A stretch of 64,000 bases of DNA from Syntrophales bacterium (GCA_963662405.2 CAXXKT010000001.1:1760001-1824000); one strand, 5' to 3'; positions 10,851 through 38,479 are shown, counted from the first letter of the stretch. The notes: generated from the sequence alone by a model not told the origin. Translations and numbers: made by a program.

Positions 10851-11669
10851 ATGACATTTACACCGACGGATGCGGCAACGGTTATCCTCCTGCGTCAAGT
10901 CAATGGGGGAAGGCCGGGATTCGAGGTCCTTATGGTCCTCAGAAATGCCGGCAGTTCCTTTGTCCCCGGCTCCTATGTCTTCCCGGGAGGGCGAGTTGAC
11001 GAGGCGGATTGCCATCGAGATATGGAGCAATTCTGTGAAGGCTCCGAACTGGTCATGGCGCAGCGGGAGCTGGATGGAACATCAGCTCCGGAGAAGGCGC
11101 TGGGTATCCGGATCGCCGCTATCAGGGAGACCTTTGAAGAGGTGGGGCTTCTCTTCGCCCGTCATCAAGATGGGTCTCTCATATTGTTGGACGGTGGCGA
11201 TGCCGGTCATCGATTCCGATCCTATCGAAGGCGGGTTCACGGAGGGGAACTGCCTTTTATAGAGGTTTTGCGGCGGGCGAAACTGGTGCTGGCACTTGAC
11301 CGGTTGCACTACTTTTCCCACTGGATTACGCCCGAACTGTCGCCGATCAGGTACGATACACGTTTTTTTGTCGCCGAGGTTCCCTCCGGTCAGGAGGCCC
11401 TGCACGATGGGAAGGAGCTGACGCGACACCTCTGGATAAAGCCTGAAGAGGCGCTCAATCGATACCATGAGCGACGGTTTCATATGGTGGTTCCCACGAT
11501 CGTCACACTGGAGGAACTGGCTCATTTTGAAGCGATTGATGATGTGATTGATTCAACCAAAGGGAAGGGGATCACGGGTGTCATGACGCGCCTCGTTGTT
11601 GAGGGGGATAAGATACGGGAGCATGCCCCCGACGGACGGATTTTTAGAACCCTGGCTCCTCGCCGGTAA
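10851..11669 (+). CDS. NUDIX hydrolase (NUDT19-like)
   Basis: AATVILLR, VFPGGRVD, AAIRETFEEVG Nudix box, HWITP..SPIRYDTRFF. Confidence 0.88.
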   Translation: MTFTPTDAATVILLRQVNGGRPGFEVLMVLRNAGSSFVPGSYVFPGGRVDEADCHRDMEQFCEGSELVMAQRELDGTSAPEKALGIRIAAIRETFEEVGLLFARHQDGSLILLDGGDAGHRFRSYRRRVHGGELPFIEVLRRAKLVLALDRLHYFSHWITPELSPIRYDTRFFVAEVPSGQEALHDGKELTRHLWIKPEEALNRYHERRFHMVVPTIVTLEELAHFEAIDDVIDSTKGKGITGVMTRLVVEGDKIREHAPDGRIFRTLAPRR

Positions 11670-11968
11670 GCGCGTATCGCGGGGGGCACGCGCATAATGA
11701 GAGTCGGCGTGAACAACGGACGAGAATACGGTGATGTCTCCAGAAGAGTCGGTCACCCGGTTTGTCGTCGATGGTGAGGAACTGATCTCTGAGATCTGTC
11801 GGGAGGGAAACCGGGGGAGGGACATCCTGCTCCCGGGCGGGTATCCCCAATGTCGCTGTCATGGTCAATGCGAGGTGTGGGGATTGTTTGGTCAGTACCT
11901 ATGTTTTGCATTCCGGTGTTGGGACAGATCGGCCGCTACGGAAACCTCAGCACCACCTGCATCGACGA

Positions 11969-13382: not shown

Positions 13383-13428
13383 GCCTTCCCCCCCTTTTTT
13401 TCTGTAGCGTATCGCTACCTACCGCCAT

Positions 13429-19054: not shown

Positions 19055-20266
19055 ATGGTGACTCAAAAAGGAGAAAAAGTGGCTGGACCTTTGCGGGGAC
19101 TCAAGATTTTGGATTTCACCACGCTCCTTCCGGGGCCGTACGCGACTATGGGACTCGCGGATATGGGGGCCGATGTTCTTCGGATCGTCTCCGGTTCCCG
19201 CCCGGACCTCACCGCCCTTGCCCCGCCTTTCATCCCGGGGACGGATATCTCGTTCGCCACGGCTTGTCTTGGGCGGGGGAAGCGATGCATGACGTTGAAC
19301 CTGAAGGACCGTCGTGCCGTTGAAATTATTCATCGTCTCTTGGCGCGATACAACATCCTGATCGAGCAGTTCCGCCCCGGTGTGATGGAGAAGCTCGGAC
19401 TCGGGTACCATGCTCTCAGGGACGTCAATCCCGCCCTCATCTATTGTTCCCTCACGGGGTACGGCCAGACGGGGCCGTACCGTGGCCGGGTGGGGCATGA
19501 TATCAACTACCTGGCGCGCTCGGGGCTCATGGCGTACTCGGGGAGAAAGGAGGGGGGACCCACCCTCACGGGAATGCAGATCGCCGATGTCGCTGCCGGT
19601 TCCAACAACGCCGTCATCGGGATCCTCGCCGCGTTTATCGCCCGCCATGAAACGGGGAGGGGACAGCAGGTTGATGTCTCCATGACCGACGGCGTCATCG
19701 CCTTCAACGCCCTGGCGGGGAACGCCTGCCTGGTGGAGGAGGAGAACAATCCCGGTCGCGAGTCTTTCCTCCTGAACGGGGGGTCTCTCTACGATTTCTA
19801 CGAGACGATGGGTGGAGGATACATCAGCCTCGGGGCCCTCGAGCCGCAGTTCTTTGCCGCCTTCTGCGAGGGGATCGGCCGGCCCGACCTGGCGGCGGGA
19901 GGGATCTCTCCCGCGAATGTCGGGGAGGTCAAGGAAGAGATCCGGGCAATCATCCGGACAAAGACGCGCGACGAATGGACGGCGATATTCGAAGGGACGG
20001 ATGCCTGTGTCGAGTCGGTCCTGACCCTCTCCGAGGCCTTGGGGAGTGACCATGCCCGTGAGCGATCCCTGGTGATTGAAGCCGATCTCCCGACAGGGGG
20101 GACGGTGAGACAGATTGCCCACCCCATCACCTTTTCGGAGACGAGACAGGAATACCGGTCGGCCGGAGTTCACGCCGGGGTGCATACGAAAGAGGTCATG
20201 CGCGAGCTGGGATATGCCGACGCCGAGATAGATGCATGGGAAGAGGAGGGGCTTTTCAGCTCTTAA
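19055..20266 (+). CDS. Family III CoA-transferase / alpha-methylacyl-CoA racemase-like
   Basis: GPLRGLKILDF, LPGP, EQFRPGVMEKLGLGY, GYGQTGP, GHDINYLA. Confidence 0.92.
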   Translation: MVTQKGEKVAGPLRGLKILDFTTLLPGPYATMGLADMGADVLRIVSGSRPDLTALAPPFIPGTDISFATACLGRGKRCMTLNLKDRRAVEIIHRLLARYNILIEQFRPGVMEKLGLGYHALRDVNPALIYCSLTGYGQTGPYRGRVGHDINYLARSGLMAYSGRKEGGPTLTGMQIADVAAGSNNAVIGILAAFIARHETGRGQQVDVSMTDGVIAFNALAGNACLVEEENNPGRESFLLNGGSLYDFYETMGGGYISLGALEPQFFAAFCEGIGRPDLAAGGISPANVGEVKEEIRAIIRTKTRDEWTAIFEGTDACVESVLTLSEALGSDHARERSLVIEADLPTGGTVRQIAHPITFSETRQEYRSAGVHAGVHTKEVMRELGYADAEIDAWEEEGLFSS

Positions 20267-20766
20267 ACATTCGGGATGTCCCCTTCTCCCGACCGGTCGG
20301 GAGAAGGGGCATATCTCATGACGTACTTGAGGGTATCTTCCTTGCAGGCTTCAAACCCGAGTCGCCGGTAGAGGGTGACCGCCGGATTGACCTTGTCAAC
20401 CTCAAATAAGACCTCTCTGTCGGTCGCATCCGCTTCACGGATGATCTCCCTCAGTATGCGGGAGCCGATACCTTTATTCCGGTAGGCCGGCAGCAATGAG
20501 AGATTGGTTACCCGGATACTCTGAAAATCAGAGTTGATCTGCAGCCTGCCGATCCGTTTGGATGCATGGACGATGACATGGTCTTCGGAAGAGGGGTATC
20601 GACTCTGGACGGACTGCTCAAAAGCGATGAACTGCTGTGCCATCAATCGTTCCCGGGCCTGTCGCGGCCAGGAGCCAGCGTGCAACTCGGCTGTTTTGAC
20701 CTCGCCGAAAAGCATCAAAAGAAAATCCGCGTCACGCTCGTCTCTCTTCCTCAGGCAAACGTCCAT
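20263..20766 (-). CDS. GNAT family N-acetyltransferase
   Basis: LLPAYRNKGIGS acetyl-CoA motif, NPAVTLYRRLGF; directly downstream of the tail-collar genes. Confidence 0.88.
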   Translation of the reverse strand: MDVCLRKRDERDADFLLMLFGEVKTAELHAGSWPRQARERLMAQQFIAFEQSVQSRYPSSEDHVIVHASKRIGRLQINSDFQSIRVTNLSLLPAYRNKGIGSRILREIIREADATDREVLFEVDKVNPAVTLYRRLGFEACKEDTLKYVMRYAPSPDRSGEGDIPNV

Positions 20767-20779
20767 GTGCCGACATCCC

Positions 20780-21304
20780 CTACGGCCGTATCGGATAGGA
20801 GCCAGAGAGGCAGATGATGTAATGCAGACATGTCCAGGGCGGCATATTCTCATGGGAGTGTAACTTCCCTTCGTCGTTTATCATATCGGCCTTCATTGTC
20901 GGATTTCCCGTTGAATCGGAACCGTACCCGGGGCTTGTTTTTGTGGCAAATAAATTATTCTGCGGTGTATTTTTGAGCTGCCGCGCCGATGACACCGTAT
21001 CACACTGAACGGCATGGCTGTGGGCCGGTACGGTTAATTGGGTCAGTGGCACCTGCTCATATCCGCCCTTATCGCCTTGGTGACGATATGAGGTGCCCGA
21101 GCTCTGTCCCGTCCCCAACACGATGCGTCCGCGCAGATCGGGAAGATTAAACGTTGTCCTTCCGTCACCGCCGAATTGGGTGCCGATGATCGAATACAGC
21201 GCAGGATTTTCAGTGATGGAAAGAGACTGCCCGTCGCAGAATGCCCAGTTTGCCGGCGGATAGGGGCCGGCAAAATATTTGACCTCGCCTATGAATCCTT
21301 CCAT
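20780..21304 (-). CDS. Phage tail-collar domain protein ('microcystin-dependent protein' type)
   Basis: FIGEVKYFAG..P..WAFCDGQ.L, LYSIIGTQFGGDGRTTFNLPDLRGR, HENMPP; GGAGG RBS. Confidence 0.9.
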   Translation of the reverse strand: MEGFIGEVKYFAGPYPPANWAFCDGQSLSITENPALYSIIGTQFGGDGRTTFNLPDLRGRIVLGTGQSSGTSYRHQGDKGGYEQVPLTQLTVPAHSHAVQCDTVSSARQLKNTPQNNLFATKTSPGYGSDSTGNPTMKADMINDEGKLHSHENMPPWTCLHYIICLSGSYPIRP

Positions 21305-21342
21305 GATTACCTCCTTCCTATAAACGGTACCGGTGATGATGG

Positions 21343-21870
21343 TTAATCTCTCGGAGGCCACAGCCCTTCCGTGCACATGATGTACTGTAAACAACCCCAG
21401 GGGGGCATGTTATCGTGCGGTTGTCCGCCGCCGGATTCGTTGAGCATATCGGTTTTCATCAGAGGATTCCCTGTTTCATCGGCTGCATACCCCGTGCTTC
21501 CCTCTAATAGCGCCGGAAGATTGCCTTGAGGCGTGTCTTGGAGTTGTCTTCCTTGAGAGGTGATGTCGCATTTTACCGTATGTGTATGCTGGGGCATCTG
21601 AGCTGTTGTGAGGGTGACATTTTCAGCGCCGCCACGCTGACCGGCGATACGGGGTGTCAGACCGGGGCCTGTGCCGGCTCCCACCGGGACCCGTCCGCGC
21701 AGATCGGGGACGCCGAACGTTGTCGTGCCATCTCCGCCGAACTGGGTGCCTATTAAAGCGTAAAGAGACTGGTATTGAGCGACCGAAAGTAGCTGCCCAT
21801 GACAAAAGGCCCAGTTCACGGGCGCAAACGTTCCTGCAAACATCTTGATTTCACCGAGGTATCCATCCAT
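21343..21870 (-). CDS. Phage tail-collar domain protein, paralog
   Basis: YLGEIKMFAG, WAFCHGQ, FGGDGTTTFGVPDLRGR, HDNMPP; GGAG RBS. Confidence 0.9.
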   Translation of the reverse strand: MDGYLGEIKMFAGTFAPVNWAFCHGQLLSVAQYQSLYALIGTQFGGDGTTTFGVPDLRGRVPVGAGTGPGLTPRIAGQRGGAENVTLTTAQMPQHTHTVKCDITSQGRQLQDTPQGNLPALLEGSTGYAADETGNPLMKTDMLNESGGGQPHDNMPPWGCLQYIMCTEGLWPPRD

Positions 21871-22182
21871 AACGTTCTCCTTTCTGTTGCGTGATTTGTT
21901 TTTTGTGAAACAGGAAACTGAATCCCTGAAAAGAATAGCTGTCCAAGCAGTATCGAGGACTATCGACCTGGATCCGGAAGATACAGCGTGTGAAATCAGA
22001 GGATCTCATGGCACTGCAAGAGGTCGCGAAAGAGATTTCACTGAAAATGTGGAACGGAATCGAAAGAGTTGTTGAAAAAAACAACTCACTATGGAATTAT
22101 ACGCTCCATATGCGATCCATACAACAAAAATATACGCACAGATCTTTGTGCCGATACTCTCGGTCAGAGAGGAGCAAGAACC

Positions 22183-22425
22183 ATGTCTGGGATGAACACA
22201 CATGTTCGAGCATTTTTCGGTTGCATGATCTTCTCTTCCATTTTCTTTGTGAGCGACATCCATGCCCGGGCATATTTCTTCTATAGCAGTGCCGACCCCT
22301 GGATATTCGTCCGGGGTGGGTCGGACGGGACGAATTCTCAATTCGTTTCCGCGGCATCGGATAACAAGATAAAAACCATCTCCACGAGCGACACTTCCTT
22401 GGGCGAGATATGTCGTAATGAGTGA
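22183..22425 (+). CDS. Small hypothetical secreted protein or gene remnant (80 aa)
   Basis: AGAGGAG RBS before ATG 22183; hydrophobic N-terminus ending IHA. Confidence 0.4.
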   Translation: MSGMNTHVRAFFGCMIFSSIFFVSDIHARAYFFYSSADPWIFVRGGSDGTNSQFVSAASDNKIKTISTSDTSLGEICRNE

Positions 22426-22501
22426 CTCAATCGGTCTTTTGAATGATTCGCATAAATAAGCACATCAGGTTTCTCCAGCACATAATAGTGAGGGGAAGAA
22501 G

Positions 22502-25500
22502 ATGAATATGAATCGTGCACACCCATGCTGTACATTGAAAAGACATCTTTTCCATATATTTATCATCCTCATTCTCAACGCATCCCTGGCCGGTTATGCC
22601 TTTGCCTATCTCGATCCCGGCACTTTCAGCTCTCTCGGCACATTCAATCCCTCCAGTAACGTCGTCGTCAATATGACCACACGGTCGATGACCGGCGGGG
22701 TTACCGCGACCGGTGTTATGTCAGGAGACATACTCGTTTTTACCTTTGACAGCTTTAGCCTGGGGGCTGGTTACAGCATCTCCTTTTCGAATGTGGCTGA
22801 TAATGATGACAAGATCGCCTTTCTCTCAAAAGGGGATATGACAATAAGTGGAAATATTTACGCAAACGCCTCGGGTACCGCTCCCGGGCCTGGAGGGAGG
22901 AGAGGTGGCACTTCTCAACCGGAAGTCGGTCAGGGCACCGGTGGAGGGCAAGTTGGCTTAGACGCAGGCGATGACGACGGAGCCGGCGGCGGCGGGTTTG
23001 GCGGCGCCGGTGGTGCACACGGGTATGGCGCCCCCGGAGGAACAACATATGGAGACCTTGCCACGGCCCTCGACGGGGGAAGTGGTGGGGCCCGCTCCGC
23101 ATATTCGAGTGATACCAGTGCCGGTGGCGGTGGCGGTGGCGGCGCACTGGAACTGGGGGCGCTCGGTACGACAACCCTGAATAATGGCTGTAATATAGAA
23201 GCGAAAGGGGCGGCAGGTTCAAATGCCGATTTAACACCTTGCGGAGAAGATGGTGATGGAGGAGGCAGCGGAGGCGGCATACTGATTCACGGAAATGTTG
23301 TCACGTTCAATTCCGGGGCCAATGTCAATGCATCGGGCGGCAACGGCGGTAATGGAGATAATGATTCAAATTGCGGGCAGACATCTGGCACCGGAGCCGG
23401 TGGCGCTGGTGGCGGCGGCGGCGGCGGACGTATACGGATCGCTTACAATGGAAGCGGGACAAATAGCGGATCTGCTGTTGCCGCTAAGGGAACGGGGGGC
23501 ACTGATCCGGGACCGTATGGGAGTTATCCGGGTGGAGATGGCTCAGCAGGCGTTGTGCAATTCGTCCAGGACTCAAACGTGCCGGTGACCAGTTCAGGTC
23601 CCGAGATATCCGTATATGGAAATTCGGTATCGATCAACGATGGAGACACCACACCCTCCGTGAGTGACGACACGCATTTTGGCGATGTCGATAAGGACAG
23701 CGGTACGGCAACGCATACCTTTACGATAAAAAATACCGGCCCGGCCACACTGACCATATCGGGCGGGCCGAATTATGTCTCGGTTGATAATGCTGTTTTC
23801 TCGGTCACGTCACAGCCCTCTGATGTGAGCCTCGAACAGAACGAGACGACCACATTCTCCATTCAATTTGATCCGGACGGCATCGGTATTGAGACGGCGA
23901 ATGTATCCTTTGCCAATAATGACGATAATGAGAACCCCTTTAACTTTGTCATAGAGGGGAATGGGACGTCCGCTGCAAGCCTGTATCTCGATGGCCGTGA
24001 CTTTACCTCGCTCGGCTCTTTCAATCCTTCCTCTGATGTGACCGTTAATATGTCCACAGGCGCCATGACGGGGGGACTGTCGGCAACCGGGACGGTTTCC
24101 AATGGCATACTGGTGTTTACCTTCGATGATTTTACCCTTGTCTCTTCGCGGAATATCAATTTCACAAACACGGAGAATTCGACCAACAAGATAGCATTCT
24201 TATCGCTCAGTAACATGACACTGTCGGGGGCGATCAACGGGAGCGGTTCGACATACACACCCGGGCCCGGCGGTGGTGCCGGTGGTACGGCAAAACCCTC
24301 GGACGGGACCGGCGCCGGTGGCGGCGGAGGTAGTGAGGATGGAGCCGGCGGAGCCGGGTTCGGTGGTGCCGGTGGGGACAGTGGTAATGGTGTGGGGGGC
24401 GGTTCGACCTATGGTGACCTGGCGGTATCTCTCAGCGGCGGCAGCGGTGGCGCCAGGTCGGAGTACTCAAGCACGGGAAACTATGGTGGTGGCGCCGGTG
24501 GTGCCGTGCAGCTTGGCGCCCTGGGGATCATCACCCTTAATTCCGGCGCGAGCATCAATGCCAATGGGGTGGCCGGTCCTGCGAGTACCGGTGTTGACGC
24601 CGATGGAGACGGCGGCGGCAGCGGTGGCGGTATCCTGATCCATGGAAAAACGATACGGCATAATAGCGGGGCAACCATATCGGCGAATGGCGGAAACGGT
24701 GGTGGTACCGCCGGAGCGGGTGACGGCATCGGCGGCGGCGGTGGCGGTGGCGGAAGGGTGCGGCTCGTGTATCATACATCGGGTGCCGGTGATATCGTCC
24801 AAACAGGGACGATTACCGTGAGCGGTGGTATGGGGGGTGCGGATGTGACTCCGGGAGAGGCCGGTGCATCCGGAACCTCGGCCTGGGCGTCGGATGCGAA
24901 TGTACCGATCGGTGGCCCGGAAATCAACATCAAGGGCAACGGTGTCTCCATTGCCGACGGTGACACAAGTCCATCAACCGGTGATGACACGGATTTCGGC
25001 AGTGTTGATGTAACCTCGGGGTCGGATGAGCATACCTTTACCATAGAGAACCTTGGTGCGGAGACATTGAATCTGACCGATGCGAGTCCCTACGTGGCGA
25101 TCACCGGGCATACCGCGGATTTCACGCTGACGTCAACTCCGTCAGCTGCCATATCAGACGGGAGCACAACCCCCTTCGCGATCACCTTCGATCCCACGGC
25201 GGGGGGGACGCGTGAGGCGACGGTCAGCATCGCCAACGACGACTCGGACGAGAACCCTTATAACTTCGATATCCGGGGGACCGGGACCTATACCGCCCCG
25301 ACGACCCAGGCCCAGACGGTCACCTTTCCGAATATCGAGGCGACCACCATGACGATCGGGTGGACGAACGGGAACGGCACGGCACGGGTGGTATTTCTCT
25401 ATAAGGGAGGGAGTTTAGAGACCGCGAGCCCCGTTGACGGGACCACCTATACGGCGAATACGGCATTCGGCGCGGGGACGCAGATCGGCGCCACCGGCTG

Positions 25501-28500
25501 GTACTGCGTCTATAACGGGACGGGGACGTCGGTAGCCGTGACGGGCCTGATGCCGGGGGCGACCTACCGGGCGATGGTGTGCGAGTACAACGGGGATGCG
25601 GGGTATGAGTCCTATGTGACCGATACGGCGACGGGGAACCCGACGAATCAGACGATGGTCACCGTCATGATCAACGAGGTTGACGCCGACACCCCCGGCA
25701 CCGACACCCTGGAGTTTATCGAACTGTACGACGGCGGGGTTGGCACCGTCAGCCTGGACGGGCTGGTGCTGGTGTTCTATGACGGTACCGACGATCAGTC
25801 ATATAACGCAGCCCCCTACGCGAATGCGATCGATCTGGACGGTTACTCGACGGATGCGAACGGATACTTTGTGATCGGCAATGCGGGCGTGTCCGGTGTG
25901 GATATGACCTTTTCGGATAATGCCCTGCAGAACGGGGCGGACGCCGTTGCCCTGTATGTGGGGGACGGGACGGATTTTCCCGATAATACCCCTGTAACAA
26001 CGGTCAATCTTATTGATGCCCTCGTGTATGATACCGACGACGCGGATGATGCGGGACTCCTGACCCTGGTCTTGGCGGGGGGACAGATCAACGAGAGCGG
26101 GCGGGGAGGCAGCACAGGGCATTCCAACCAGCGGATACCGAACGGCACGGGGGGCTTGAGGAACACGACGGCGTACACCCAGCAGCCCCCGACGCCGGGT
26201 GCCGAGAATAACGCCTATCCCGAGATCACCTCCGCTGCGTATGACTATGGGACGAATCAGCTGGTGGTCACCGGCCGGTATCTGGTCGAGAATGATGGCG
26301 CGGACAACGACGTGGATGTGTCACTTCTGACCGTGACCGGTGAAGGGGGCGGCACGTACACCCTCGCGGACTCCGCTGATGTCGAAATCACCTCCGATAC
26401 GCAGTTCACCGTCACCCTGAGCGGGGCCGACATACCACAGGTGGAGGCGCTTCTGAACAAGGACGGGACGAGTGCGGACGATGATACCGTCTACAACCTC
26501 GCGGCGGCGGACAACTGGATGCCCGGCGCGCCCGCGGCGGACGATATCGCCGATGCGACAAACGGGATCACGGTCAGCAACTATACCGTCCCCATGATTA
26601 CCTCATGCACCTACGATGCCACGAGCGGCCAACTGGTCGCCACGGGAACGAACTTTGTCGTCAACAGCGGCCTGGCGAACGACGTCGATACGTCGCTCAT
26701 CACCTTCACCGGTCAGGGGAGTGGCACCTATACCCTGACCGACACGGGTGATGTGGAGATCACCTCGTCCACCCAATTTACCGTGACCGTGAGCGCGACG
26801 GACCGGCCCCATGTGAACGGACTCCTTAACCGGGCGGGGACACAGTCGGCGGATACCGTCCTCTATAACCTTGCCGCGGCGGACAACTGGATGCCGGGTG
26901 CGCCTGCGGGGAACGACACAGCGGACGCGACCTCCGGGATCACCGTCAGCAATGTCCAGGCCCCGACGATCACCGAGGCCGCGTATGATTACGGGACGGA
27001 TACCCTGACCGTGACGGGGGCGGCATTTGTCGCTCAATCCGGGGTAGCGAACGATGTGGACATCACGAAGCTGACCGTAACCGGCGAGGGGGGCGGCACC
27101 TATACGCTGGCGACTTCGAACAATCCCGAGATCGCCTCATCCACCCAGTTCACCGTCACCCTGAGCGGTGCGGACATACCGCATGTGGAGTCGCTCCTGA
27201 ACAAGGACGGGACGAGCGCGGCCGACGGGCCGGCCTACAATCTTGCCGCTGCGGACAACTGGATGCCCGGCACGGACCCGTCGGCGGACATCGCCGATGG
27301 GGCGAGCGGGATCACGGTGAGCGGCTATGCCGTCCCGCAGATCACCTCGGCCGTGTACGACGCCGGGACGGGGCAGTTGGTGGCAACGGGGACGAACTTT
27401 GTCGTCAACAGCGGTGCGTCCGATGTGGACGCCTCGCAGTTCACTTTCACCGGTCAGGGGAGTGGCACTTATACCCTCACCGACACGGGCGATGTGGAGA
27501 TCACGTCAGCTACCCAGTGTACGGTGACGTTGAGTGCGACGGACCGGTCCCAGGTGAATGGGCTCCTCAACAGGGCCGGGACACAGTCGGCGGATGCGGT
27601 CACCTATAATCTTGCCGCGGCGGACAACTGGATGCCGGGGTCACCCGCGGGGAACGATACGGCGGATGGGACCACCGGGATAACCGTCAGCAACGTCCAG
27701 ACCCCGACGATCACTGAGGCGACATATGACGCCGACACGGGCGTATTCACGGTGACCGGGACGAATCTGCGGGGGAATGCCGGTGCGGCGAATGATATCG
27801 ATGTCTCCCGATTGACCGTGACGGGCGAAGGGGGAAACTACACCATATCGGATGCGATTGCGGATGTAGAGATCACCTCGTCCACCGAGTTCACCTTTAC
27901 CGTCACGGGGACGGACAAGACCCAGGTGGATCTCCGGCTCGATCTCTTCGGGACACAGTCGAGCGGCGGGACGACGTACAATCTTGCCGCAGCCGATAAC
28001 TGGCTGGCCGCGGCCGATCCGGCCGCCGACATCGCCGATCTTACCAATAACGAGATTACCGTTACCGTCAATCCGCGGATCACGAGCGCGACCTATAATG
28101 CCGCCACCGGCGTCCTGGTGGTGACGGGATCCAATATCCGGGAGAACGGCGGGGGGTCCGATATCGATGCCTCCCAATTGACCTTTACCGGTGAAGGGGA
28201 TGCGACCTATACGCTCACCGATACGCCTGACGTGAACCGGGACAGTTCCTCCCAGTTTACCGTCACCTTGAGCGCTGTCGACAGGGCAGCCGTCAACCGG
28301 ATCATGAACAAGAACGGGACCGCATCGACCGGCGGGACGGCCTATAACCTTGCCGCGGCGGATGACTGGTGCACCAATGTCACGGCCGGCAATACCGCCG
28401 ATCCGACCGGCAACGGGATCACCGTCAGCAACGTGCCGCTGCCGATGGTCACCTCCGCCACGTACAACGCGGGGACGGGTGTGCTGGTCGTGACCGGTAC

Positions 28501-30049: not shown

Positions 30050-30431
30050 GGGCAACCGCATCGGTTCATGCGCGCAGAGGGGATCTCCCTCCTGTGGCTC
30101 GCACCCCGGGCGGGTGGGCATGCCGGGGTGTGCTGCAATCCGAAGCCCGCTGCCCCGCCGCTGCACGGGGCGGCGAAGGATCTTCCCGGGTTACCGTGAT
30201 GAATGGAGCGGGCAGATCAGAAAACGGTTGCGTATTCCAGCAAGTTATGTAATCTACGACAGAATCTGTGCCGTTCCGGCCGGGACCGGTACCATCTCGG
30301 TTGTAACCGCCGATACGGAGAACGGAACGCACAAAGGGCGGGCCGTCCGCGCCCTGTGGCGCTTGATGGCATCGCTGCGGCTGTGCACGCGGCGATGCAA
30401 TATGAGAAATCACACGAAGGGGTCATACGTT

Positions 30432-31613
30432 ATGAGACATGCAGCACGGGTCGTGATCATTCTGTCGTTCATCCTTTTTGGGGCGGATACCGGCTCTTCC
30501 GAGGAGACATCCCTGACCCTCCCCACCGCCGATTCCACCAGCAGCTTCAGGGTGTACAATAGCGCTTCGGCCAATCTGTTCACGGTGAGGGGCGATCTTA
30601 AAGTGGGGATCAGGCAGCCGAATCCGCGCGCCGAGCTTGAGGTCGGGGGGACCGACGGCATCCTCTGCACCGGGACCATGAACAGCGGCACGGTCCGGGC
30701 CCTGGGGGCCGGCGTGCGGTTTCACTGGTATCCGCGGAAGGGGGCCTTCCGGGTGGGAATGGCCGAGAGCTCGTACTGGGACGACAACGGGACATCGACC
30801 CCGAACCTGGCCCTCTATTCCATTGCCATGGGATACCAGCCGCGGGCGACGGGGGTCGCCTCCACCGCCATCGGCGCGTACAACCGAGCGACAGGGGATT
30901 ACTCGCTGGCCCTGGGTTCGTATAACCAGGCCACCGCTTCCCACGCCGTCGCCATCGGGACCCAGGCCTTTGCCACCGGGATCTACTCTTTTGCCCTGGG
31001 CTGCGGCGCCGACACCAACGGCAAGGACGGCTCTTTCGTCATCGGGGATGATACGTATTTCCAGACGGCATACGCCAGCAACGACAATCAGCTCACCATG
31101 CGCTTCTCCGGGGGGACCGTGGCTGACGATTCCTCCGCCCCTGATTACGTCGCGGGCGAGCGGAAAGCCTACCGGTTCTGGACGTCCTATCCTGACTGTG
31201 CCGCAGGCGTCTACATGAACCACGGCGACAGTTCGTGGCGCTCCTATTGCAGCCGGGACCTCAAGGAGAATTTCGCGCCGGTGGACGGCGAGGAACTCCT
31301 CGGCAAGATCCGTGATCTCCCCGTTACGCAGTGGAACTACAAGGCGGTGGACCCCTCCGTGAAGTTCATCGGTCCCGTGGCGGAGGATTTCTGGGACGCC
31401 TTCCGGCTCGGCGGGACCGATAACAAGGGGATCAGCAACTTTGCCATCGCCGGGGTGAATATGGCCGGGGTGAAGGCCCTTGAGAAGCGGACCGGGGACA
31501 TGAAGGAAGAAATGGCGGAGATGAAGGGGGAGATCGATCGGTTGCGGGCCGAGATCGCGTCCCTCAGGGCTCAGCTCGCCGCCGCCTGCGGCCCCCGTCT
31601 CGCGGCGCGGTAG
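30432..31613 (+). CDS. Secreted tail-fibre-like protein with YadA-head-like repeats and a peptidase S74 (intramolecular chaperone) domain
   Basis: Signal peptide; 14-aa S.A.G repeats; [31 protein letters not shown]-terminal coiled coil. Confidence 0.85.
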
Positions 31614-31684
31614 CACGAACCGGGCGGGTTCGCCCTGCGATAAAGGCATATGCACACCGAACAGACACGAGGAAAAGACGGCTT

Positions 31685-34600
31685 GTGAAAAAGATACCCT
31701 TCGTCTTTGCCGCATTCCTGATGTTCCTATGGATCGTCCCGTCGGTCGGCGCGGACGGCCTGTCGATCTGCTCAGGCACGGTATTTTCGCTCGGCTCTTC
31801 CACATTCAGCCTGAGCGGCGACTGGTGCAACGCCGGGATCTTTACGGCAGGCTCGGGGACGGTTGTCTTCAACGGAGCGAGCGGTAACCAGACCATCACC
31901 GATCCATCCGGTGAGACCTTCTATCATATGACGGTGAGCAAGACAGTCGGCGACGTCCTCCTGTATACGGATGTAACCGTCAACGGGACACTCACCGTTA
32001 CCGGCGGAGACGTCGACCTGAACGGGCATGTCCTGACGCTGCATGGCTCCGGGCTGGTGAGCGAATCGGATGGCGCCACGGTCAAGGGGACGTCCGGTTA
32101 CATCACCACCACACGGGATCTCGATGCGCCGGCCGGCGTCGATGTGGCGGGGATGGGGGCGGTCATTACGTCGTCGGCCGACCTGGGGGGCACGACGATC
32201 CGGAGAGGACACGCTCCGCAGACGGGGGGTGGAAACAGCTCCATCCTCAGGTATTACGATATCACGCCCACCAATAATGCCGGTCTCGATGCGACATTGG
32301 TTTTTCATTATGATACCTCGGAACTCAACGGTCTGACGGAGGGTAACTTTGCGCTCTTTCAGTCGACCGACGGCGGGACCACCTGGACCAACCGGGGGGG
32401 GACCGTGGCGGCCGAGAGCAATACGGTGACAAGGACAGGCATTGCCGGTTTTTCGAGGTGGACACTCGGGGATGAGGACGATCCGCTTGACGCCCCCGAT
32501 ATGGATGTTCGGGGGAAGGGGGTGTCCATCTCGGACGGCGATACCACGCCCGGCACGGCGGATGACACGGATTTCGGATCGACAGGCCTTGCCGGCAGCA
32601 TCACCCATCCCTTCACCATTGCGAACATCGGTACGGATACCCTGACCCTCACCGATCCGTCTCCCTCCGTGTCGATCTCGGGGACCCATGCCGGGGACTT
32701 CTCGGTGACCTCCATCCCTTCCACCAGTATTGCGGCAGGAGGCGGGACCACGACCTTTGCCGTCACCTTTACACCGGGCGCACTGGGGGTGCGCGAGGCG
32801 ACCGTCGGCATCGCCAGCAACGATTTCGATGAGAACCCCTATGACTTTGCCATACAGGGGACCGGGATCGCCTTCCCTGTGGTGACGACCCAGGCAACAT
32901 CGGATGTTGCCACGACAACGGCGACGGGGAACGGGACCATCGTGAACCTGGGATATCCGAATCCCACGCAGCATGGTGTCTGCTGGGGCACGTCGGCAGA
33001 TCCCACCACGGCGGATAGCAAGACAGAGAAAGGCGCGACCGGTTCAACCGGTGCGTTCACGAGCGGCATGACGGGCCTGAGCCCGAGCGCGACCTATCAC
33101 TGCCGCGCCTATGCGACCAATACCATGGGGACCGGGTACGGTGAGGATGTAACCTTCTCCACCCTGCCGGATCCACCGAGCACCCCGGACCTGCATATAG
33201 ACAGCGACACGGGGACCTCCGGTACCGACAACATCACCAACGACGCGACCCCCACCTTTGCCGGGACGGCAGAGGCCCATGCCACGGTGACGGTGATTTC
33301 CAGCATCGACGGGACCCTGGGCACCACGACGGCCGACGGTGCTGGGGACTGGAACTATATACCCGGTGCGGTTCTCACCGAGGGGACGCACAGCATGACA
33401 GCAACCGTCACCAACACCACGACGGGCAAGACCTCGGCTGCCTCCTCGGCCCTGTCGATCACCATCGACACCACGGCACCAACGGTCCCTCAGGAACCGA
33501 CGGGCGGCCTGGACGTATTCGAGAACGCGACGACCGGCACGAGTGCCGGCACGGTGACCAGTACCGATGCGGCGACCGTTACCTGGTCCCTCGATGCCGA
33601 CGGAGACGGCCGCTTCGGCATCAACGCCGGGGCCGGTGAGGTCACCGTCCAGGCGGGGGCGACCTTCGACACCGAGACCGAGCCTACAATAATCATCACC
33701 GTGCGCGCCACCGACACGGCGGGGAACGCTTCGACCGCCGCACTTACCGTTGACATCGGCAACGTCAACGAACCGCCGGTGATCGGCGGCGTATTCGGCG
33801 ACACCTCTTCCCAGGTAATAGCCGGATCCGGGGCCCAGAACGTTACAGGGCTCGACGACGCGACCGTGAGTGATGCCGACTCCGTCGATATGAACGGCGG
33901 CATCCTGACGATCACGCAGTCCGGCGGAACAACGAACGGCAGCTGGGGCGTCGACGGGACGATCGCCACCTCGGGGGGTGACGACACCGTGGCCACGGGT
34001 GAGACCATCGCCGTGGGGGGGATTGCGGTCGGCACGGTACACGCAACCGACAACGGCCAGGGGGGCAACTCCCTGCGCATCGGTTTTACGACAGCCGACG
34101 CCACCCCGGCCCGGATCCAGACCCTGCTGCGGACCCTGACCTATGCGGCGCCCACCGTTCTCGACACCCGCACCTTCACCCTGACCCTGAACGACAACGA
34201 CGGCACCGCCGACGGGGGTGACCAGGACACCGCCGGCGCCTTCACCATAACGATCACCTCCAACCCGCCGGTCGTCTCCAACCTGAACGGCGACGGCGTC
34301 ACGACGCGGATCACCATCTCCGTCAATATCGATGATGGAAGGGATGCAAGCGTAAGCGATCCGGACAACGTCGACTTCGATACCGGCAATCTGCTGATTA
34401 CGGCATCCGGTGTTGCCGGCAATTTCGAGGTGGACGGCACCGGTGTGACCTCCGGAGGAGATGCGACCATTGCCGCCGGTGAGACGGTCTCAGTAGGCGG
34501 CGCTGCCATCGGTATCGTCGGAAACGACGGCCAGGGGGGCAATGATCTGCGGATCGACTTCAACGGTAACGCCACCCCGTTGCTGGTACAGACCTTTATC

Positions 34601-35968
34601 CGAGACCTCATATGGACCAGCAGTAATCCGGGAACAGCCACCTTCGGTCTGACTGTTACCGATGCCGGGGCGAGCGGGGCGACGAGCACGGCCTGTTCCT
34701 TCACTGTCACGGCGATCGCTCCCGAGATGGATGTCCGGGGGAACGGGGTGTCCATACCGGATGGCGACACCACCCCCGACACGGCGGACGATACGGACTT
34801 CTCGTCAGGCCTTACCAGCGGCAGCATCACCCATACCTTCACCATTGCGAATACCGGCACAGATACCCTGACCCTCACCGGTCCGTCTCCCTTCGTATCG
34901 ATTGGCGGGACCCATGCGGCGGACTTCTCGGTGACCTCCGTACCGTCTGACAGTCTGGCGGGAGGGGGGGGGATCACGACCTTTGCCATCACCTTTACCC
35001 CCCCGAGTGTCGTGGGGGTGCGAGCGGCGACGGTCAGTATTGCCAACAACGATTCCGATGAGAATCCCTATGATTTTTCCATACAGGGGACCGTTCTGCC
35101 CGATGTCACTATCTCGGGGACGGTGACGGACGGAGTGAACCCCATTGAAGGTGCGACGATCACCTTCTCCCACAACGGGCACACGGAGCAGACCACCGCC
35201 GACGGGACCTACTCGTATGTTGTCTCCGCCGCGATCACGACGACCGTGACCCCCTCCCATCCGGGGTACGCCACGTGGGACCCGGCAAACCGAGAGATTT
35301 CCAACATCCTGGCCGACCAGCCCGGGCAGGACTTCACCGCCACCTCAGATTCGGACGGTGTTCCAACGACGGAGGAAAACGGTCCGGACGGGACCGATCC
35401 TGCCTATGACGGGAACAGCGACGGCATTCCCGATGGCAACCAGCCTCATGTGGCCTCATTCCATACGGCGGACGGAGAGAACTATGTCACCCTTGCCGCC
35501 CCGGACGGGACACTGCTCTCGGGTGTTCAGGCCCTCCCGGAGCCGGTTTACGGGATGTTTTCGAGTCGTATCTGTTTCCCCTACGGCCTGTTCCGGTTTA
35601 CCATCACCGGTGTGACGCTGGGGGGAGCGGCGGAGGTGCGGCTTTTCCTCTCCGGTGAGACGACGATGGAGTCATACTGGCGATACGGTCCGGAGCCGGG
35701 CAATGTCTCGCCGCATGCCTATGAGTTCATGCTGTCAGGGGAGACGGGTGCCGAGATTGCAGGGAACGTGGTAACCCTGCACTTCATCGACGGCCAGCGG
35801 GGGGACGATGATCTTGACGGCGGAAACGGGGTGATCGTCGACGACGGCGGCCCCACCGCTCCCGCTCCGGTAATTCCCGTTCTCACAAAGAGTGGAATAG
35901 TCGTCTTTGTGATTCTCCTGTCCGTCTGTGCCTGCCTGCTGATGCGGGCACAGAAACGGTCGGTGTAG
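31685..35968 (+). CDS. Large modular surface protein (1427 aa): 2x choice-of-anchor D, FN3-like, Ig-like, cadherin-like, choice-of-anchor U-like, IPTL-CTERM-like tail
   Basis: Signal peptide; YHCRAYATN (FN3), [15 protein letters not shown] (Ig-like), FDTET..VRATD..NVNEPP (cadherin); [10 protein letters not shown] + TM + KR. Confidence 0.9.
35105..35968 (+). repeat. C-terminal cassette copy 2 (864 nt)
   Basis: Collinear with 29186..30049; differences are largely at third codon positions in the stretch compared. Confidence 0.9.
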
Positions 35969-36013
35969 AGGCAGATTGTGGTAATAATGGTCGTACCAGA
36001 TGATAGAGACAGA

Positions 36014-36044
36014 AACGGCGCAGCCTTTTTGGGGCTGCGCCGTT
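36014..36044. terminator. Hairpin between convergent genes (possible bidirectional terminator)
   Basis: AACGGCGCAGCC-N7-GGCTGCGCCGTT, perfect 12-bp stem. Confidence 0.7.
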
Positions 36045-36087
36045 CGGTGTTTATCGACGAGATATCATGAAATATCGTACGTTATTG

Positions 36088-36795
36088 CTACTTATGTAAC
36101 TTTCTTCTGCTCAAACCCGCGAGACCGGCCAGACCGAATCCCAGGAGGAGCATCGTCCCCGGTTCGGGTACGGGCTCTCCCCCTGTGGGTGTGTAATCGT
36201 AGGCAACCACTACGCTTCCCGAATAGGTGCTCGGGTCGTATTGTACGGAGACCTCATCACCATCAAAGGAAATATCCGGATCGTTCGAAACATGGAACGT
36301 ATAAGTGCCGGTGCCGATGTAATAGGATATGAGAGAGCTGTCAACCGTTCCGATGGTGGAATCGATAAATTGCTCACCGCCGAAGCTCGTCGATGCGCCG
36401 TCGGCAAGTCCGTAGGTGTAGCTCTCGGAACCCGTTAATTCATCACCCTGCGATCCGATGTAGGTGTTAGAGGGGAAACCAACTGCGGAAATAAGATACG
36501 GTGTGCCGGATGAGGTCAACTCTGAGGTCATTGTGTATGTCGCCGTCCCCGAGGCATAGGCACCGGTGTTGTTGGTCAAGTCAAAGCCCCCGGTAGTCAC
36601 GTCCATGGAAAAGGTGACGGTTATGCTGTTCAGTGTCCCGAGCGACGAATCAAAATAGTTAAACGTCAAGTCTTCGTTGGCGCTGCTGAAGGTGTCGCTG
36701 GTCTCCAGTATCGTCGCCATCCCCGATGGGACCCACAGGAAGGTTACCATCCCGGCCACCATCAACATACACGCCAAACGTTTTAATGTCTTCAT
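36088..36795 (-). CDS. PEP-CTERM sorting-domain protein (choice-of-anchor E-like)
   Basis: Signal peptide; FDSSLGTLNSI; C-terminal PVPEPGTMLLLGFGLAGLAGLSRRK. Confidence 0.92.
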   Translation of the reverse strand: MKTLKRLACMLMVAGMVTFLWVPSGMATILETSDTFSSANEDLTFNYFDSSLGTLNSITVTFSMDVTTGGFDLTNNTGAYASGTATYTMTSELTSSGTPYLISAVGFPSNTYIGSQGDELTGSESYTYGLADGASTSFGGEQFIDSTIGTVDSSLISYYIGTGTYTFHVSNDPDISFDGDEVSVQYDPSTYSGSVVVAYDYTPTGGEPVPEPGTMLLLGFGLAGLAGLSRRKLHK

Positions 36796-36929
36796 GATAA
36801 ACCTCGCTTTGCTTTGCAACAAACTGCGTAAATTTCACTTCTCATTTTAAAAGAAGTCTAATGATTCTCACCAAATCAGTCAATACGAAAGGGAGCTTAA
36901 TATGTACGTATTTTTTAGGTAATTTCACC

Positions 36930-36974
36930 TACGCAAAAAGTAGTAAAAAAAACACCTCTAGTACTTTTTGCGTA
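36930..36974. promoter_or_regulatory. Perfect 13-bp inverted repeat upstream of PEP-CTERM gene
   Basis: TACGCAAAAAGTA-N19-TACTTTTTGCGTA. Confidence 0.55.
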
Positions 36975-37016
36975 TTCGCTTTCCCCGTCTCCTCTTTTTC
37001 GATTCCGGCTCTTGTT

Positions 37017-37349
37017 CTACATTTCTGCGGGCGTAATCCGGTATTTCTTATCGAAACAGATCGCCATGCCCTGCTTCCCCGTCCGGATCACCGCCCCCTT
37101 CACCCTGATCTTCGCCTTTTTCCCCTTGACCTTCTTCAGCTCGTCGAGGGGGAGTACCAGATCCACCTGCATCTGGGTCCCCACGGGGAGCGGCGTATCG
37201 GTATAGAAAAAGGCGCCGCCCGCGGAGATATCGCTGGTGATCGCATCCAGTGAGCCGTTCTCAGCCCCGTTCCCGTTGTCGTTGACAACAATACGGGCGG
37301 GGAGCTTGAGAGAAAACCGTTCCAGCTTTCTTTTTCCGAATTCAGGCAT
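37017..37349 (-). CDS. Stand-alone PilZ domain protein
   Basis: RKLER (RxxxR) and DISAGG (DxSxxG) c-di-GMP motifs. Confidence 0.88.
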   Translation of the reverse strand: MPEFGKRKLERFSLKLPARIVVNDNGNGAENGSLDAITSDISAGGAFFYTDTPLPVGTQMQVDLVLPLDELKKVKGKKAKIRVKGAVIRTGKQGMAICFDKKYRITPAEM

Positions 37350-37570
37350 CTGTATGCATCCCTTAAGTGGAAGACCGGGCTTGTGATTTCTCGGCGGCAT
37401 ATCCCGTTTGCCTTGGTTGCACTGTAGCAAGTCGATTCCGTCAATTCAATACGAAAAGGGTCTGATTTTTATCTCATCATTCCGGTGTCAACAGGTACGA
37501 CAAAGGGGCTATGCCGATCTGTTTCGTTATTGATGAAGGTTTTGCCGGGACCTGGTGAAGGTCTGATGGG

Positions 37571-38254
37571 TTACAGATACTTCGCCACCCACAACATCGC
37601 TTGGAGGCGATTGGTGGTGTTGATCTTCTTGTAGATGTTGTAGATATGGGTTCTGACCGTATGGGGGCTGATAGAGAGATCGCTCGCTATGTCCTCATTG
37701 CTGGCGCCGGACGCGATCCCGACGAGGATCTCCTTTTCCCGTGAGGTCAGGATGTCGGCGGCCGCAAGGGAGGCTGCGCTCCCCTTTCCGGGTTCCATGA
37801 TCCGCTTGGAGAGTGCCTTTCTCGAATACCACATCTCGCCGTCCAGCATGGCCTTGACACCCCGGGGAAACATCTCCAGTGAGTCGCCCTGGTAAAAAAT
37901 CCCATGAATGTCCCGGTCCATGATTTCCCGTTCTTTCCCCGTCTTTCCGTCAAGGTTGAAGAGGGCGATACAGGTGGTGGTCGGATGGATGGTCGGATTC
38001 CGCTCAATCATCGCCCAGAGGTGCCCCAGGTCGGTCCCCCGGCAGTCAAAGAGGAAGAGTGATTGGGAGAGTGAATCGACCGTGGCGGTCTCCCCGTTGG
38101 GATCGGTCGTGAAGGTGCACACAAGACCCGTTTCCTGTTCGAGAAAGCGTGCCAGGAGTTCGTTCTGCAGCGTATTGGGGCCAACAATGATGACCCGCGG
38201 TCCTGCCGTGTCCTGTTTGTTTAAGGCCTTCCTGTTCAAGTTTTCGATTACCAT
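37571..38254 (-). CDS. LuxR-family regulator, CsgD/VpsT-like
   Basis: Degenerate receiver domain, GEMWYSRK, HTH LTSREKEIL..GASNEDIA..ISPHTVRTHIYNIYKKI..NRLQAMLW; start uncertain. Confidence 0.88.
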   Translation of the reverse strand: MVIENLNRKALNKQDTAGPRVIIVGPNTLQNELLARFLEQETGLVCTFTTDPNGETATVDSLSQSLFLFDCRGTDLGHLWAMIERNPTIHPTTTCIALFNLDGKTGKEREIMDRDIHGIFYQGDSLEMFPRGVKAMLDGEMWYSRKALSKRIMEPGKGSAASLAAADILTSREKEILVGIASGASNEDIASDLSISPHTVRTHIYNIYKKINTTNRLQAMLWVAKYL

Positions 38255-38479
38255 CCACTGCGGCGCGACCGATCGGATACGCTCCCGGTCGGTAGAGTAT
38301 CCCCACATTTTCCCTTGCGCATCCTTTTATATTCACGGAGAAAATACGAATATCACCATGCCCGCCGTATGTCAAATGCAGATTGCACCGTGGGATGCCG
38401 ATCTCACCCAATTCACCTCCGGAGCGAAGATAAAGATGATTTCCCATTGGTTCGTTTCGTCCTAGTTTCCCGAAATCCA

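Follow-up and report, generated by a model that had tools for sequence, protein, structure and literature searches.

How a trimeric fibre of phage type that lacks a membrane anchor can be held on a bacterial cell is the question raised by a locus in a 64,000-nucleotide stretch of Syntrophales DNA (the window). A preliminary description had read the locus as a single c-di-GMP-controlled apparatus in which anchorless trimeric fibres dock on membrane-sorted scaffolds. The genes are present, yet they do not make up one system. In the explanation that we consider likely, 20263-35968 forms an accessory island that carries two modules of surface-adhesin genes and is inserted beside a genus-core trio. 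In module 2, a fibre would sit on the first rung of a giant protein (giant B); module 1 (collars, GNAT and giant A) would be a second, re-anchored adhesin module.

Gene content of the locus

The nine genes of the preliminary description were all found where it had placed them, and the HMM annotation that it had proposed assigned Pfam and NCBIfam families across the locus genes (Table 1). Its remark that phage structural and integration genes are lacking was borne out: a Pfam scan of 49 window proteins (16 + 33, out of 164 ORFs) detected no capsid, terminase, sheath, tube, baseplate-wedge or integrase family. The sole exception in that scan was a sub-cut-off Gp10_C match inside collar 1. A 118-codon stub (22069-22425) had been overlooked. 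Promoter scanning was uninformative (10 sites, 8.2 in shuffles), and hairpin scanning returned 14 sites against 12.4 in shuffles, so that the probable terminator between giant B and the PEP-CTERM gene is distinguished only by its length and place.

Table 1. Features of the locus; positions are counted from the first nucleotide of the window.
Feature	Position	Strand	Basis or remarks
GNAT acetyltransferase, collar cassette	20263..20766	-	PF13508 (1.9e-10), PF13673, PF00583; longest ORF reaches 20853
Collar protein 2, leaderless, 174 aa	20780..21304	-	PF07484; start set by ribosome-binding site
Collar protein 1, leaderless, 175 aa	21343..21870	-	PF07484
Stub of earlier 5' end of giant gene (tip-swap relic)	22069..22425	+	Comparison with G009 giant
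Giant A, 2515 aa	22502..30049	+	Signal peptide to IPTL-like membrane tail
Giant A first tip, adhesin-type beta-helix with polyglycine inserts	22604..23575	+	Model pLDDT 75.1
Giant A second tip copy	about 23978-24919	+	Repeat of first tip
S74-chaperoned fibre, 393 aa	30432..31613	+	Signal peptide, docking strand, YadA-type head, S74 chaperone, coiled coil
Predicted docking strand, fibre residues 24-31, one per chain	30501..30524	+	Complex-model interface
S74 cleavage motif, Cys273 at usual Ser position, Lys278	31248..31265	+	Alignment of relatives
Giant B, 1427 aa	31685..35968	+	Signal peptide, dock, Ig/cadherin-like stalk, choice-of-anchor U, IPTL-like membrane tail
Unnamed dock domain	31754..32500	+	Short beta-helix (~residues 1-110) and ZU5/GAIN-like sandwich (112-243)
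First beta-helix rung, predicted fibre site	31754-31819	+	Complex-model interface
Hairpin, 14 pairs, probable terminator	36014..36044	.	Between converging giant B and PEP-CTERM genes
PEP-CTERM protein, choice-of-anchor E	36088..36822	-	PF07589; conserved flank, outside island
PilZ protein, both c-di-GMP motifs	37017..37430	-	PF07238; conserved flank
VpsT/CsgD-like regulator, WYSR at 160	37571..38308	-	PF21155 and GerE; conserved flank

An island beside a conserved trio

The island was recognized by synteny with same-genus genomes, and the same comparison bears on the idea that the whole 18 kb is one adhesion or matrix apparatus under c-di-GMP control. That idea has points in its favor. Binding of c-di-GMP by PilZ proteins involves the motifs RxxxR and D/NxSxxG, and the PilZ protein carries both, intact, at ORF residues 34 and 67; the c-di-GMP motif of VpsT is W[F/L/M][T/S]R, from which the WYSR of the VpsT-like protein is one conservative departure (this protein scores 99.6 with the CsgD model, cut-off 250). 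The genome has 19 ORFs with a GGDEF-type motif, the island genes adjoin the c-di-GMP genes, and a newly inserted island could come under the control of a core regulator. However, the trio formed by the PEP-CTERM (PF07589, 31.9 bits), PilZ and VpsT-like genes occurs in the same order in all seven same-genus genomes, while an S74 gene occurs in none of the seven and the sole collar match among them belongs to a phage tail fibre. In five of them an mltC-like gene (Pfam-confirmed for two) occupies the position of the island. The survey of neighborhoods for co-occurrence of collar, GNAT, S74 and CTERM genes, also proposed in the preliminary description, yielded two modules, each found without the other in relatives: G025 and G009 hold one module each, with no VpsT-like match at E ≤ 1e-25. 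A single c-di-GMP system was rejected on synteny, and we regard it as very unlikely; the trio flanks an insertion site, and the c-di-GMP genes are only neighbors of the island. More improbable still is a decayed prophage, tailocin or injection-system remnant. The collars and the fibre do match PHROG tail families, but the absence of any other virion family among the 49 window proteins led us to reject this candidate; furthermore, the reading frames are intact, the fibre has a signal peptide, and the same layouts are found in chromosomal contexts of two phylum-level samples.

An S74 fibre encoded beside a sorted partner

The fibre matches PF13884 (31.4 bits, cut-off 22) and the YadA head family PF05658, is 85% identical to the G025 fibre, and begins with a basic-hydrophobic leader that we read from the sequence as a signal peptide. 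It has no membrane anchor; in particular, a C-terminal YadA anchor barrel is absent, as Pfam matches comprise the head and S74 and NCBIfam matches the head only. Anchorless S74 fibres are found in 51 of the 151 genomes of one Bacteroidota-centred sample. The S74 motif reads Cys-Ser-x-x-x-Lys, with the Cys in 60 and the Lys in all of the 75 aligned relatives, instead of the SDxxxK motif with a Ser nucleophile (MAT-type); the Cys variant may still cleave. By analogy with the family, the fibre would enter the periplasm via its signal peptide and would be trimerised by the S74 chaperone, which would then be cut off by self-cleavage.

In this genome, each of the three S74 genes lies directly upstream of a gene whose product has a signal peptide, begins with a beta-helix-type part and carries a CTERM tail. 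The two S74 genes of G025 likewise precede such a protein, and in one of these partners the signal peptide is followed by just a 65-aa beta-helix and a short tail. Among short-base relatives of the fibre, 9/9 evaluable ones precede a protein that opens with the same rung pattern (two look identical, and one is the G025 locus). Seen from the other side, an S74 fibre lies upstream in six of the seven N-terminal dock loci with upstream DNA; further dock loci include three with a non-S74 fibre and one with an S74 fibre. In L025 the dock is found behind a non-fibre gene, and L160 and L161, whose start is divergent, have no fibre upstream. The link is one-way: among the 30 best-scoring Bacteroidota S74 loci, the dock domain comes next in only 1 of the 29 with downstream DNA. 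With a profile of dock residues 2-24, the first 12 places among 128 ORFs go to partners encoded downstream of a fibre; the rung-profile scores of short partners (2.7-14.3) overlap with those of chance matches in this genome, which reach 15.6. Giant A was also considered as the dock of the fibre and rejected, being unmatched by dock profiles and, when 5231 ORFs were ranked by the rung profile, not among the first 20.

The dock domain (model pLDDT 97.6) belongs to a family with 3929 representatives. Sequence comparison with the PDB gave two weak matches, Foldseek found no match at E ≤ 0.001 for either the dock model or the giant A tip model, and atlas look-up of a homologue returned unnamed clusters only. 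In a midpoint-rooted tree of 21 rows (the window, G025 and 19 of 25 loci), the window, G025 and a Syntrophaceae sequence group together (starred, 95/93) amid rows from Bacteroidota, Ignavibacteria and Calditrichota. Relatives carry the dock domain with a T9SS tail. Giants A and B each have two choice-of-anchor D domains and one choice-of-anchor U, and the last 285 aa of giant B are 82% identical to those of giant A.

Predicted docking of the fibre on giant B

Complex modeling of the fibre with the scaffold, suggested earlier, gave a predicted complex with the dock of giant B. In the model, each of the three fibre chains contributes one N-terminal strand, and each strand pairs with a different face of the triangular beta-helix at its first rung. 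As each strand takes one rung face, a scaffold monomer would hold one fibre trimer. The complex scored 0.82, against 0.00 for the best of three controls, which were unrelated proteins rather than other beta-helices. The score mark is reached by 116/157 solved pairs and 2/215 mismatched pairs, a calibration set from which a fibre and its dock differ in kind. Between runs, at least 97% of contacts coincide, and pLDDT is at least 92 for the partner and 92 for the fibre trimer, with three copies imposed and only the partner scored. The modeled chains begin at guessed signal-peptide cuts, and the interface sits at those free ends. Altogether, gene pairing and the complex model make it probable that a membrane-sorted scaffold serves as the dock of the anchorless trimeric fibre, and this part of the preliminary description stands. 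The stalk of giant B would lift the fibre.

Two other readings of the pairing deserve consideration. One is that the fibre and giant B are co-inherited adhesins that do not bind each other, the fibre being released or held otherwise and the model merely pairing free beta-edges. Both the position of the predicted interface at the ends of the constructs and the lack of such a partner beside most sampled Bacteroidota S74 genes (28/29) are in agreement with this view. However, the partners have little in common beyond the first rung, which is the exact part used by the model, and the 65-aa partner offers nothing else; moreover, a giant B stalk without the dock (61% identical, in G004) occurs in the absence of an S74 gene. 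We deem this reading unlikely. The other assigns the dock a role as export pilot or release device: it would bind and export the fibre, after which its sandwich would cleave itself and shed fibre and head. The sandwich aligns to CARD8 (Z 8.8, rmsd 3.6, 121 aligned) and, with NLRP1-FIIND and GAIN domains included, to ZU5/GAIN structures at Z 8.0-8.8 (rmsd 3.0-4.0, 113-126 aligned), values that are near the search background. Its end bears an F-S-x-W motif that is conserved across the family consensus and that we take to resemble self-cleaving ZU5 sites. Against cleavage, the non-cleaving ankyrin ZU5 ties (Z 8.5, rmsd 3.0, 113 aligned), no His precedes the motif, and the sandwich is absent from the two type-2 partners, at C1:708136 and C1:1999559, and from short Ignavibacteria-type partners. 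A release device seems distinctly unlikely, and docking on the first rung remains our preferred reading.

Sorting tails and export

The preliminary description had assigned an IPTL-CTERM-like tail to both giants. Their tails do consist of a motif, a membrane helix and a basic cluster at the C-terminus, and are IPTL-like; they are not, however, canonical, as the Trp of IPTLxxWG is missing and no match was obtained to PF18203 at E ≤ 1 or to TIGR04174 at E ≤ 0.05. When the 5231 ORF ends of this genome are ranked by a profile built from 15 canonical tails of the same genome, the two giants come 17th and 18th; their tails also show a weak midcut_by_XrtH match. The search for exosortases, likewise proposed, detected two in the genome. 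One, of the 8-helix type that goes with PEP-CTERM proteins, has a TIGR02602 score of 181.1 (cut-off 105.55); the small one (C1:383329-384066) scores 99.9 for XrtM (cut-off 125) and 66.7 for XrtH, short of the cut-off of 86. Two GspD proteins exceed their cut-off. SprA was not found in G000, G025 or G009 by a search that detected it in the positive controls, G456 and G581. We infer that an exosortase and a type II secretion system (T2SS) would act on the membrane tail of giant B, and the IPTL-like tail would do the job of the T9SS tail of Bacteroidota relatives. Because this host has the dock although no T9SS was found in it, the dock rather than the secretion system appears to be the conserved part.

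Module 1

The collar and GNAT genes face the gene for giant A. The latter protein is composed, in this order, of a signal peptide, two glycine-rich beta-helix tips, two choice-of-anchor D domains, a lamin-tail domain, eight ~124-aa repeats, choice-of-anchor U and the membrane tail. G581 has a T9SS-tailed giant that shares 33-40% identity with it over about 1800 aa. The first tip of giant A aligns to EtpA (Z 11.7, rmsd 2.7, 159 aligned) and to a springtail antifreeze protein (Z 6.7, rmsd 4.4, 118 aligned). The G009 giant has the stalk of giant A (83%) and a different tip, and the stub is 44% identical over 119 aa (E 5e-28) to the 5' ORF part of that giant.

The collar proteins match PF07484 (1.3e-27 and 3.6e-28) and are 54% identical to each other; the nearest solved chain of collar 1 is T4 gp12 (E 3.1e-7). 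Neither has a signal peptide that would account for its export, and the seating of collar trimers on giant A is a guess made from gene context. A GNAT family member also adjoins collars in L069, L070, L071, L074 and L242. GNAT linkage was found for 9/20 leaderless and 0/10 leadered collars (p 0.013); when the four profile-building loci are left out, the figures are 5/16 and 0/10 (p 0.12), and we treat the association as a lead only.

Relationship to known systems

Among the papers listed by literature searches, none gave an account of module 1 or module 2. The closest known systems include the S74 subgroup, for example Bd3182, of the mosaic adhesive trimer (MAT) fibres of Bdellovibrio bacteriovorus (PMC10769870). 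In MAT fibres the signal peptide is followed by a beta-rich domain of ~130 aa that is conserved, and surface location and self-cleavage are further traits; according to that paper, the surface element that binds the MAT base awaits identification. MAT fibres and ours are alike in being chromosomally encoded and in having a signal peptide and a terminal S74 chaperone; MAT fibres are trimeric, as ours is predicted to be, and a conserved base with a variable tip would be a further parallel. The differences are length (about 1000 aa in MAT fibres, 393 here), a Cys in place of the catalytic Ser, the YadA-type head and the gene for a sorted partner alongside; no MAT chain was among the PDB matches of the fibre profile at E ≤ 1.

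The predicted insertion of the fibre base into the tip of a neighboring membrane-tethered scaffold suggests how such fibres stay on bacterial cells. For one fibre class, the locus offers a testable answer at residue level, an 8-residue strand on a 22-residue rung, and a small 3-to-1 connector of this kind would serve surface display. A broader proposal, which we hold tentatively and with less than even confidence, is a general, anchor-independent display code for cell-encoded phage-like fibres. Each N-terminal strand of a trimer would lock onto one of three faces of the opening rung in a monomeric beta-helix. This rung would be grafted onto any sorting tail of the host, be it a T9SS domain, a short leucine-rich tail or a membrane tail of IPTL-like type, and untagged fibres might in this way ride out via T9SS or T2SS. 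Leaderless collars and GNAT would make up a second tip system on giant A, and both modules would have moved between phyla and been re-anchored.

YadA head repeats are shared with trimeric autotransporter adhesins (YadA, UspA1, CbpF), in which the place of the S74 chaperone is taken by the C-terminal YadA anchor barrel. With IPTL-CTERM/exosortase H and PEP-CTERM/exosortase A sorting, the locus and its genome have in common the motif, membrane helix, basic cluster and exosortases; unlike IPTL-CTERM, the motif of the giants is Trp-less and below model cut-offs. GlyGly-CTERM and MYXO-CTERM are T2SS-dependent according to 10.1101/2023.06.07.544157, and T2SS secretins are also encoded in this genome; by analogy, the tails of the giants may use T2SS. 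The dock domain and the collar/GNAT/giant layout also occur with the T9SS tails of cargo in Bacteroidota and relatives, whereas SprA had no match in this genome, where another tail takes the place of the T9SS one. Lastly, PF13884 and PF07484 are shared with phage fibres that have an intramolecular chaperone (K1F endosialidase, T5 pb1) and with collar-bearing T4 gp12. Here, however, virion genes are lacking, the fibre base is modeled on a cell-surface scaffold instead of a baseplate, and, in contrast with T4 gp12, the collars are stand-alone 175-aa proteins.

Gene content and insertion site of the island

HMM annotation recovered the nine genes named in the preliminary description, and a Pfam scan of 49 window proteins detected no other virion families, in agreement with the absence noted there. 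The genes form an island made of module 1 (GNAT, collars and giant A) and module 2 (fibre and giant B), next to a trio of VpsT-like, PilZ and PEP-CTERM genes.

Coordinates of the island and the adjoining trio within the window
Feature	Position	Strand	Length
Window	G000:C1:1760001-1824000
GNAT	20263-20766	minus
Collar protein, leaderless	20780-21304	minus
Collar protein, leaderless	21343-21870	minus
Giant A	22502-30049	plus	2515 aa
S74 fibre	30432-31613	plus	393 aa, counted from likely start
Giant B	31685-35968	plus	1427 aa
PEP-CTERM protein, PilZ protein, VpsT/CsgD-like regulator	36088-38308	minus

At E ≤ 1e-25, the regulator is present in 7/7 same-genus genomes and in 0/30 other genomes of the family. 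PilZ and then PEP-CTERM genes adjoin it in all seven (the PilZ gene of G002 was recognised at DNA level). The sole collar match in these genomes is a tail fibre within a phage-like cluster. In five of the seven, the PEP-CTERM gene is followed by an mltC-like gene (Pfam confirmation in two). In G005, this gene has PEP-CTERM genes on one side and the orthologue of the CoA-transferase of the window on the other; in G001, it is flanked by the PEP-CTERM gene and the orthologue of the ligase of the window. Therefore, segment 20263-35968 occupies that site in the window. The fibre and the giants have a G+C content of 61–64%, above that of the genome (53.6%) and of the trio (52.8%).

The c-di-GMP motifs of the PilZ and VpsT-like proteins are ones that we take to be plausible; position is the sole tie between these proteins and the island. 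A single c-di-GMP apparatus, as initially proposed, is not borne out: all seven same-genus genomes that keep the trio lack an S74 gene. In its own right, the trio may represent a surface unit of the genus linked to c-di-GMP.

The two modules also occur apart. In G009 (same family, other genus), two collars on a contig of 3140 bases face a giant that shares the stalk of giant A at 83% and has a different tip. The window holds a 118-codon stub of a G009-type 5' end (44% over 119 aa); therefore, the tip of giant A looks swapped. In G025, giant A is missing, and the fibre (85%) and giant B have an unrelated metabolic gene beside them. Both collars (2/60 relatives) and S74 genes (2/37) are rare among kin.

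Elsewhere in the window, short or partial ORFs at 8600-13400 (a partial amidase, a weak NUDIX and several without family) are possibly decayed genes. A single run at 50581-56011 encodes a MacB/FtsX permease, an ABC ATPase, a membrane-fusion protein with an unusual PAS fusion, and an outer-membrane efflux protein.

Pairing of fibre and scaffold genes

The first 249 mature residues of giant B match no named family in Pfam, NCBIfam or PHROG. The model of this N-terminal "dock" domain (pLDDT 97.6) is a short beta-helix plus a ZU5/GAIN-like sandwich, the latter with Z 8.0–8.8 to ZU5/GAIN, near search background. The family numbers 3929 representatives at E ≤ 0.001, most of which show a T9SS-type tail by inspection, and the closest named relative is a Syntrophaceae contig (65%), suggesting that the host is of Desulfobacterota type. 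G004 carries the stalk of giant B at 61%, without dock and without S74 gene.

Fibre genes are paired with scaffold genes. All three S74 genes of G000, the window's own genome, sit directly 5' of a gene for a protein that carries a signal peptide and a CTERM tail. In the first sample, with 25 genome loci, the dock is N-terminal in 8, of which 7 show upstream DNA: an S74 fibre lies upstream in 6 and another anchorless protein in the remaining one (L025). L024 has a partial dock domain behind an S74 domain in a single frame. No S74 gene was seen upstream of the 16 internal-dock loci (5 by Pfam; many without an upstream gene in view). In the second sample, 71/401 genomes harbor the domain, and the best 30 loci were examined (L135 repeats L008). 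The dock was internal in 20; it follows an S74 gene in L151 and non-S74 fibre-like genes in L148, L152 and L153. In L160, L161 and L163, the dock start is divergent and there is no fibre; the frames of L144 and L164 are broken.

A survey starting from the fibre covered 26 metagenome loci, of which 5 stop at or near a contig edge (in L198, the leader alone is in view) and two are broken. The next gene is visible for nine short-base fibres (two of the loci appear to be identical, and the G025 locus is among the nine), and 9/9 partners start with the same pattern of rungs (beta-helix turns). A dock-type partner was not seen for any of 10 long-base or 5'-cut fibres. With a profile of dock residues 2-24, fibre-downstream partners rank 1 to 12 among 128 ORFs; the scores of short partners (2.7–14.3) are within reach of chance matches in G000. 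The partner of the second G025 fibre consists of no more than a leader, 65 residues of beta-helix and a short tail rich in leucine.

One survey counts against generality: S74 genes occur in 51/151 Bacteroidota-centred genomes, and among the 29 evaluable best-scoring loci, a dock domain follows one; by inspection, 13 precede a rhomboid-like gene and 5 carry a T9SS-like tail at their end.

Related arrangements were also observed. The 13 S74 genes upstream of a rhomboid-like protease gene (L106, L108-L110, L113, L115, L116, L118-L122, L125) are large and lie directly 5' of it. Partners of long-base fibres in L112, L126, L134, L200 and L204 start with a different glycine/serine-rich motif: the base type of the fibre seems to track the partner type. 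G000 has two further fibre-plus-scaffold pairs (L001, G000:C1:1997807-2002234; L002, C1:706438-714369). Their fibres are of a different type, and the scaffolds are IPTL-type proteins (891 and 2077 aa) that begin with a 65-aa beta-helix. In L003 (G000:C1:1518596-1522998), two non-S74 secreted proteins with an N-terminal segment in common lie directly 5' of an IPTL/choice-of-anchor U protein whose N-terminal domain is of another kind; this may be a second fibre-dock type.

Model of the fibre–dock complex

The complex was modelled with three chains of fibre residues 24-272 and dock residues 1-243 as partner. The complex scored 0.82, with 0.00 for the best of 3 controls, none of which was a beta-helix; the score mark was reached by 116/157 solved complexes and 2/215 mismatched pairs, counts that apply only roughly to this complex. 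At least 97% of contacts agree between runs, with partner pLDDT of at least 92. In the predicted 3-to-1 assembly, fibre residues 24-31 of each chain contact dock residues 1-22, one chain per first-rung strand (dock residues about 3-5, 9-12 and 16-19); this interface falls on the ends at which both constructs were cut, and the contact stretch is the one common to fibre partners. Sequence searches gave no comparable solved complex: the fibre matched YadA-head chains only, and the dock gave 2 weak matches only. The proposed docking of anchorless fibres on sorted scaffolds thus gains support for the S74 fibre on giant B, from gene pairing and the complex model, but not as part of one c-di-GMP apparatus.

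At the S74 site, the fibre, like 60/75 relatives, has Cys at the position usual for Ser, and Lys is invariant; the fibre would trimerise and cleave itself. It works like the Bdellovibrio MAT fibre as described in PMC10769870, where the surface element that binds the MAT base is said to await identification. However, we keep it outside the MAT class as it lacks the Ser motif. A literature search, mostly without subscription papers, found no account of the dock or of the collar/GNAT/giant cassette.

Sorting tails and export

The tails of the giants, described earlier as IPTL-CTERM-like, do have the motif-helix-basic layout, but the Trp of IPTLxxWG is missing and both curated models missed them. 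With a profile of 15 canonical G000 tails, they rank 17th and 18th among 5231 ORF ends; ahead of them are the training set and one further tail that lacks Trp. The Trp-less variant is found in three proteins of G000 and also in G004 (window 29954-30049 and 35873-35968; G000:C1:935914-936945; L184:9283-9720). G000 has 15 PF18203 matches over cut-off and 6 PEP-CTERM matches.

The exosortase search suggested in the preliminary description yielded, in G000, an 8-helix exosortase encoded within a polysaccharide locus, plus a small exosortase below the XrtM and XrtH cut-offs. The latter, an XrtM/XrtH-like protein whose gene precedes one for a membrane protein with a terminal SEC-C motif (L005, G000:C1:383329-384745), is a candidate enzyme for IPTL-type tails.

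Export would involve an exosortase and the T2SS, and adhesion would be the role. GlyGly-CTERM and MYXO-CTERM proteins depend on T2SS, according to 10.1101/2023.06.07.544157; by analogy, IPTL-like tails may share this route. G000 has two GspD matches over cut-off. SprA is present in G456 and G581, and the same search did not find it in G000, G025 or G009. Tails are exchanged between relatives.

Several secreted proteins of G025 (L045, L046) have a short Pro-x-x-x-Leu-Leu-Leu-Asp/Glu-type tail without basic cluster, and the minimal dock partner ends in the same way; this looks like a further sorting signal.

Module 1 in other genomes

Collar relatives occur in 10/400 genomes of the window's phylum and 41/251 Bacteroidota-centred genomes. 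In most of 30 contexts (10 and 20, respectively), a large secreted-type gene is no more than 3 kb away; leaders are found on many collars. In G581, a GNAT and three collars face a 2528-aa giant, 33–40% identical to giant A over ~1800 aa, whose C-terminus is a T9SS-type tail: this is the layout of module 1 on a different anchor. The cassette GNAT occurs close to 9/20 leaderless collar sets versus 0/10 leader-bearing sets, an association that loses significance after removal of the four loci that built the profile. The tip of giant A is predicted to be an adhesin-type beta-helix with polyglycine inserts (EtpA Z 11.7, rmsd 2.7, 159 aligned), and eight 124-aa repeats come after it.

In L069-L071, L074 and L077, a GNAT accompanies leaderless collar genes, often with a small conserved gene of ~100 aa. 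In L077, kinase-like and sulfotransferase-like neighbours were seen by inspection beside the collar genes.
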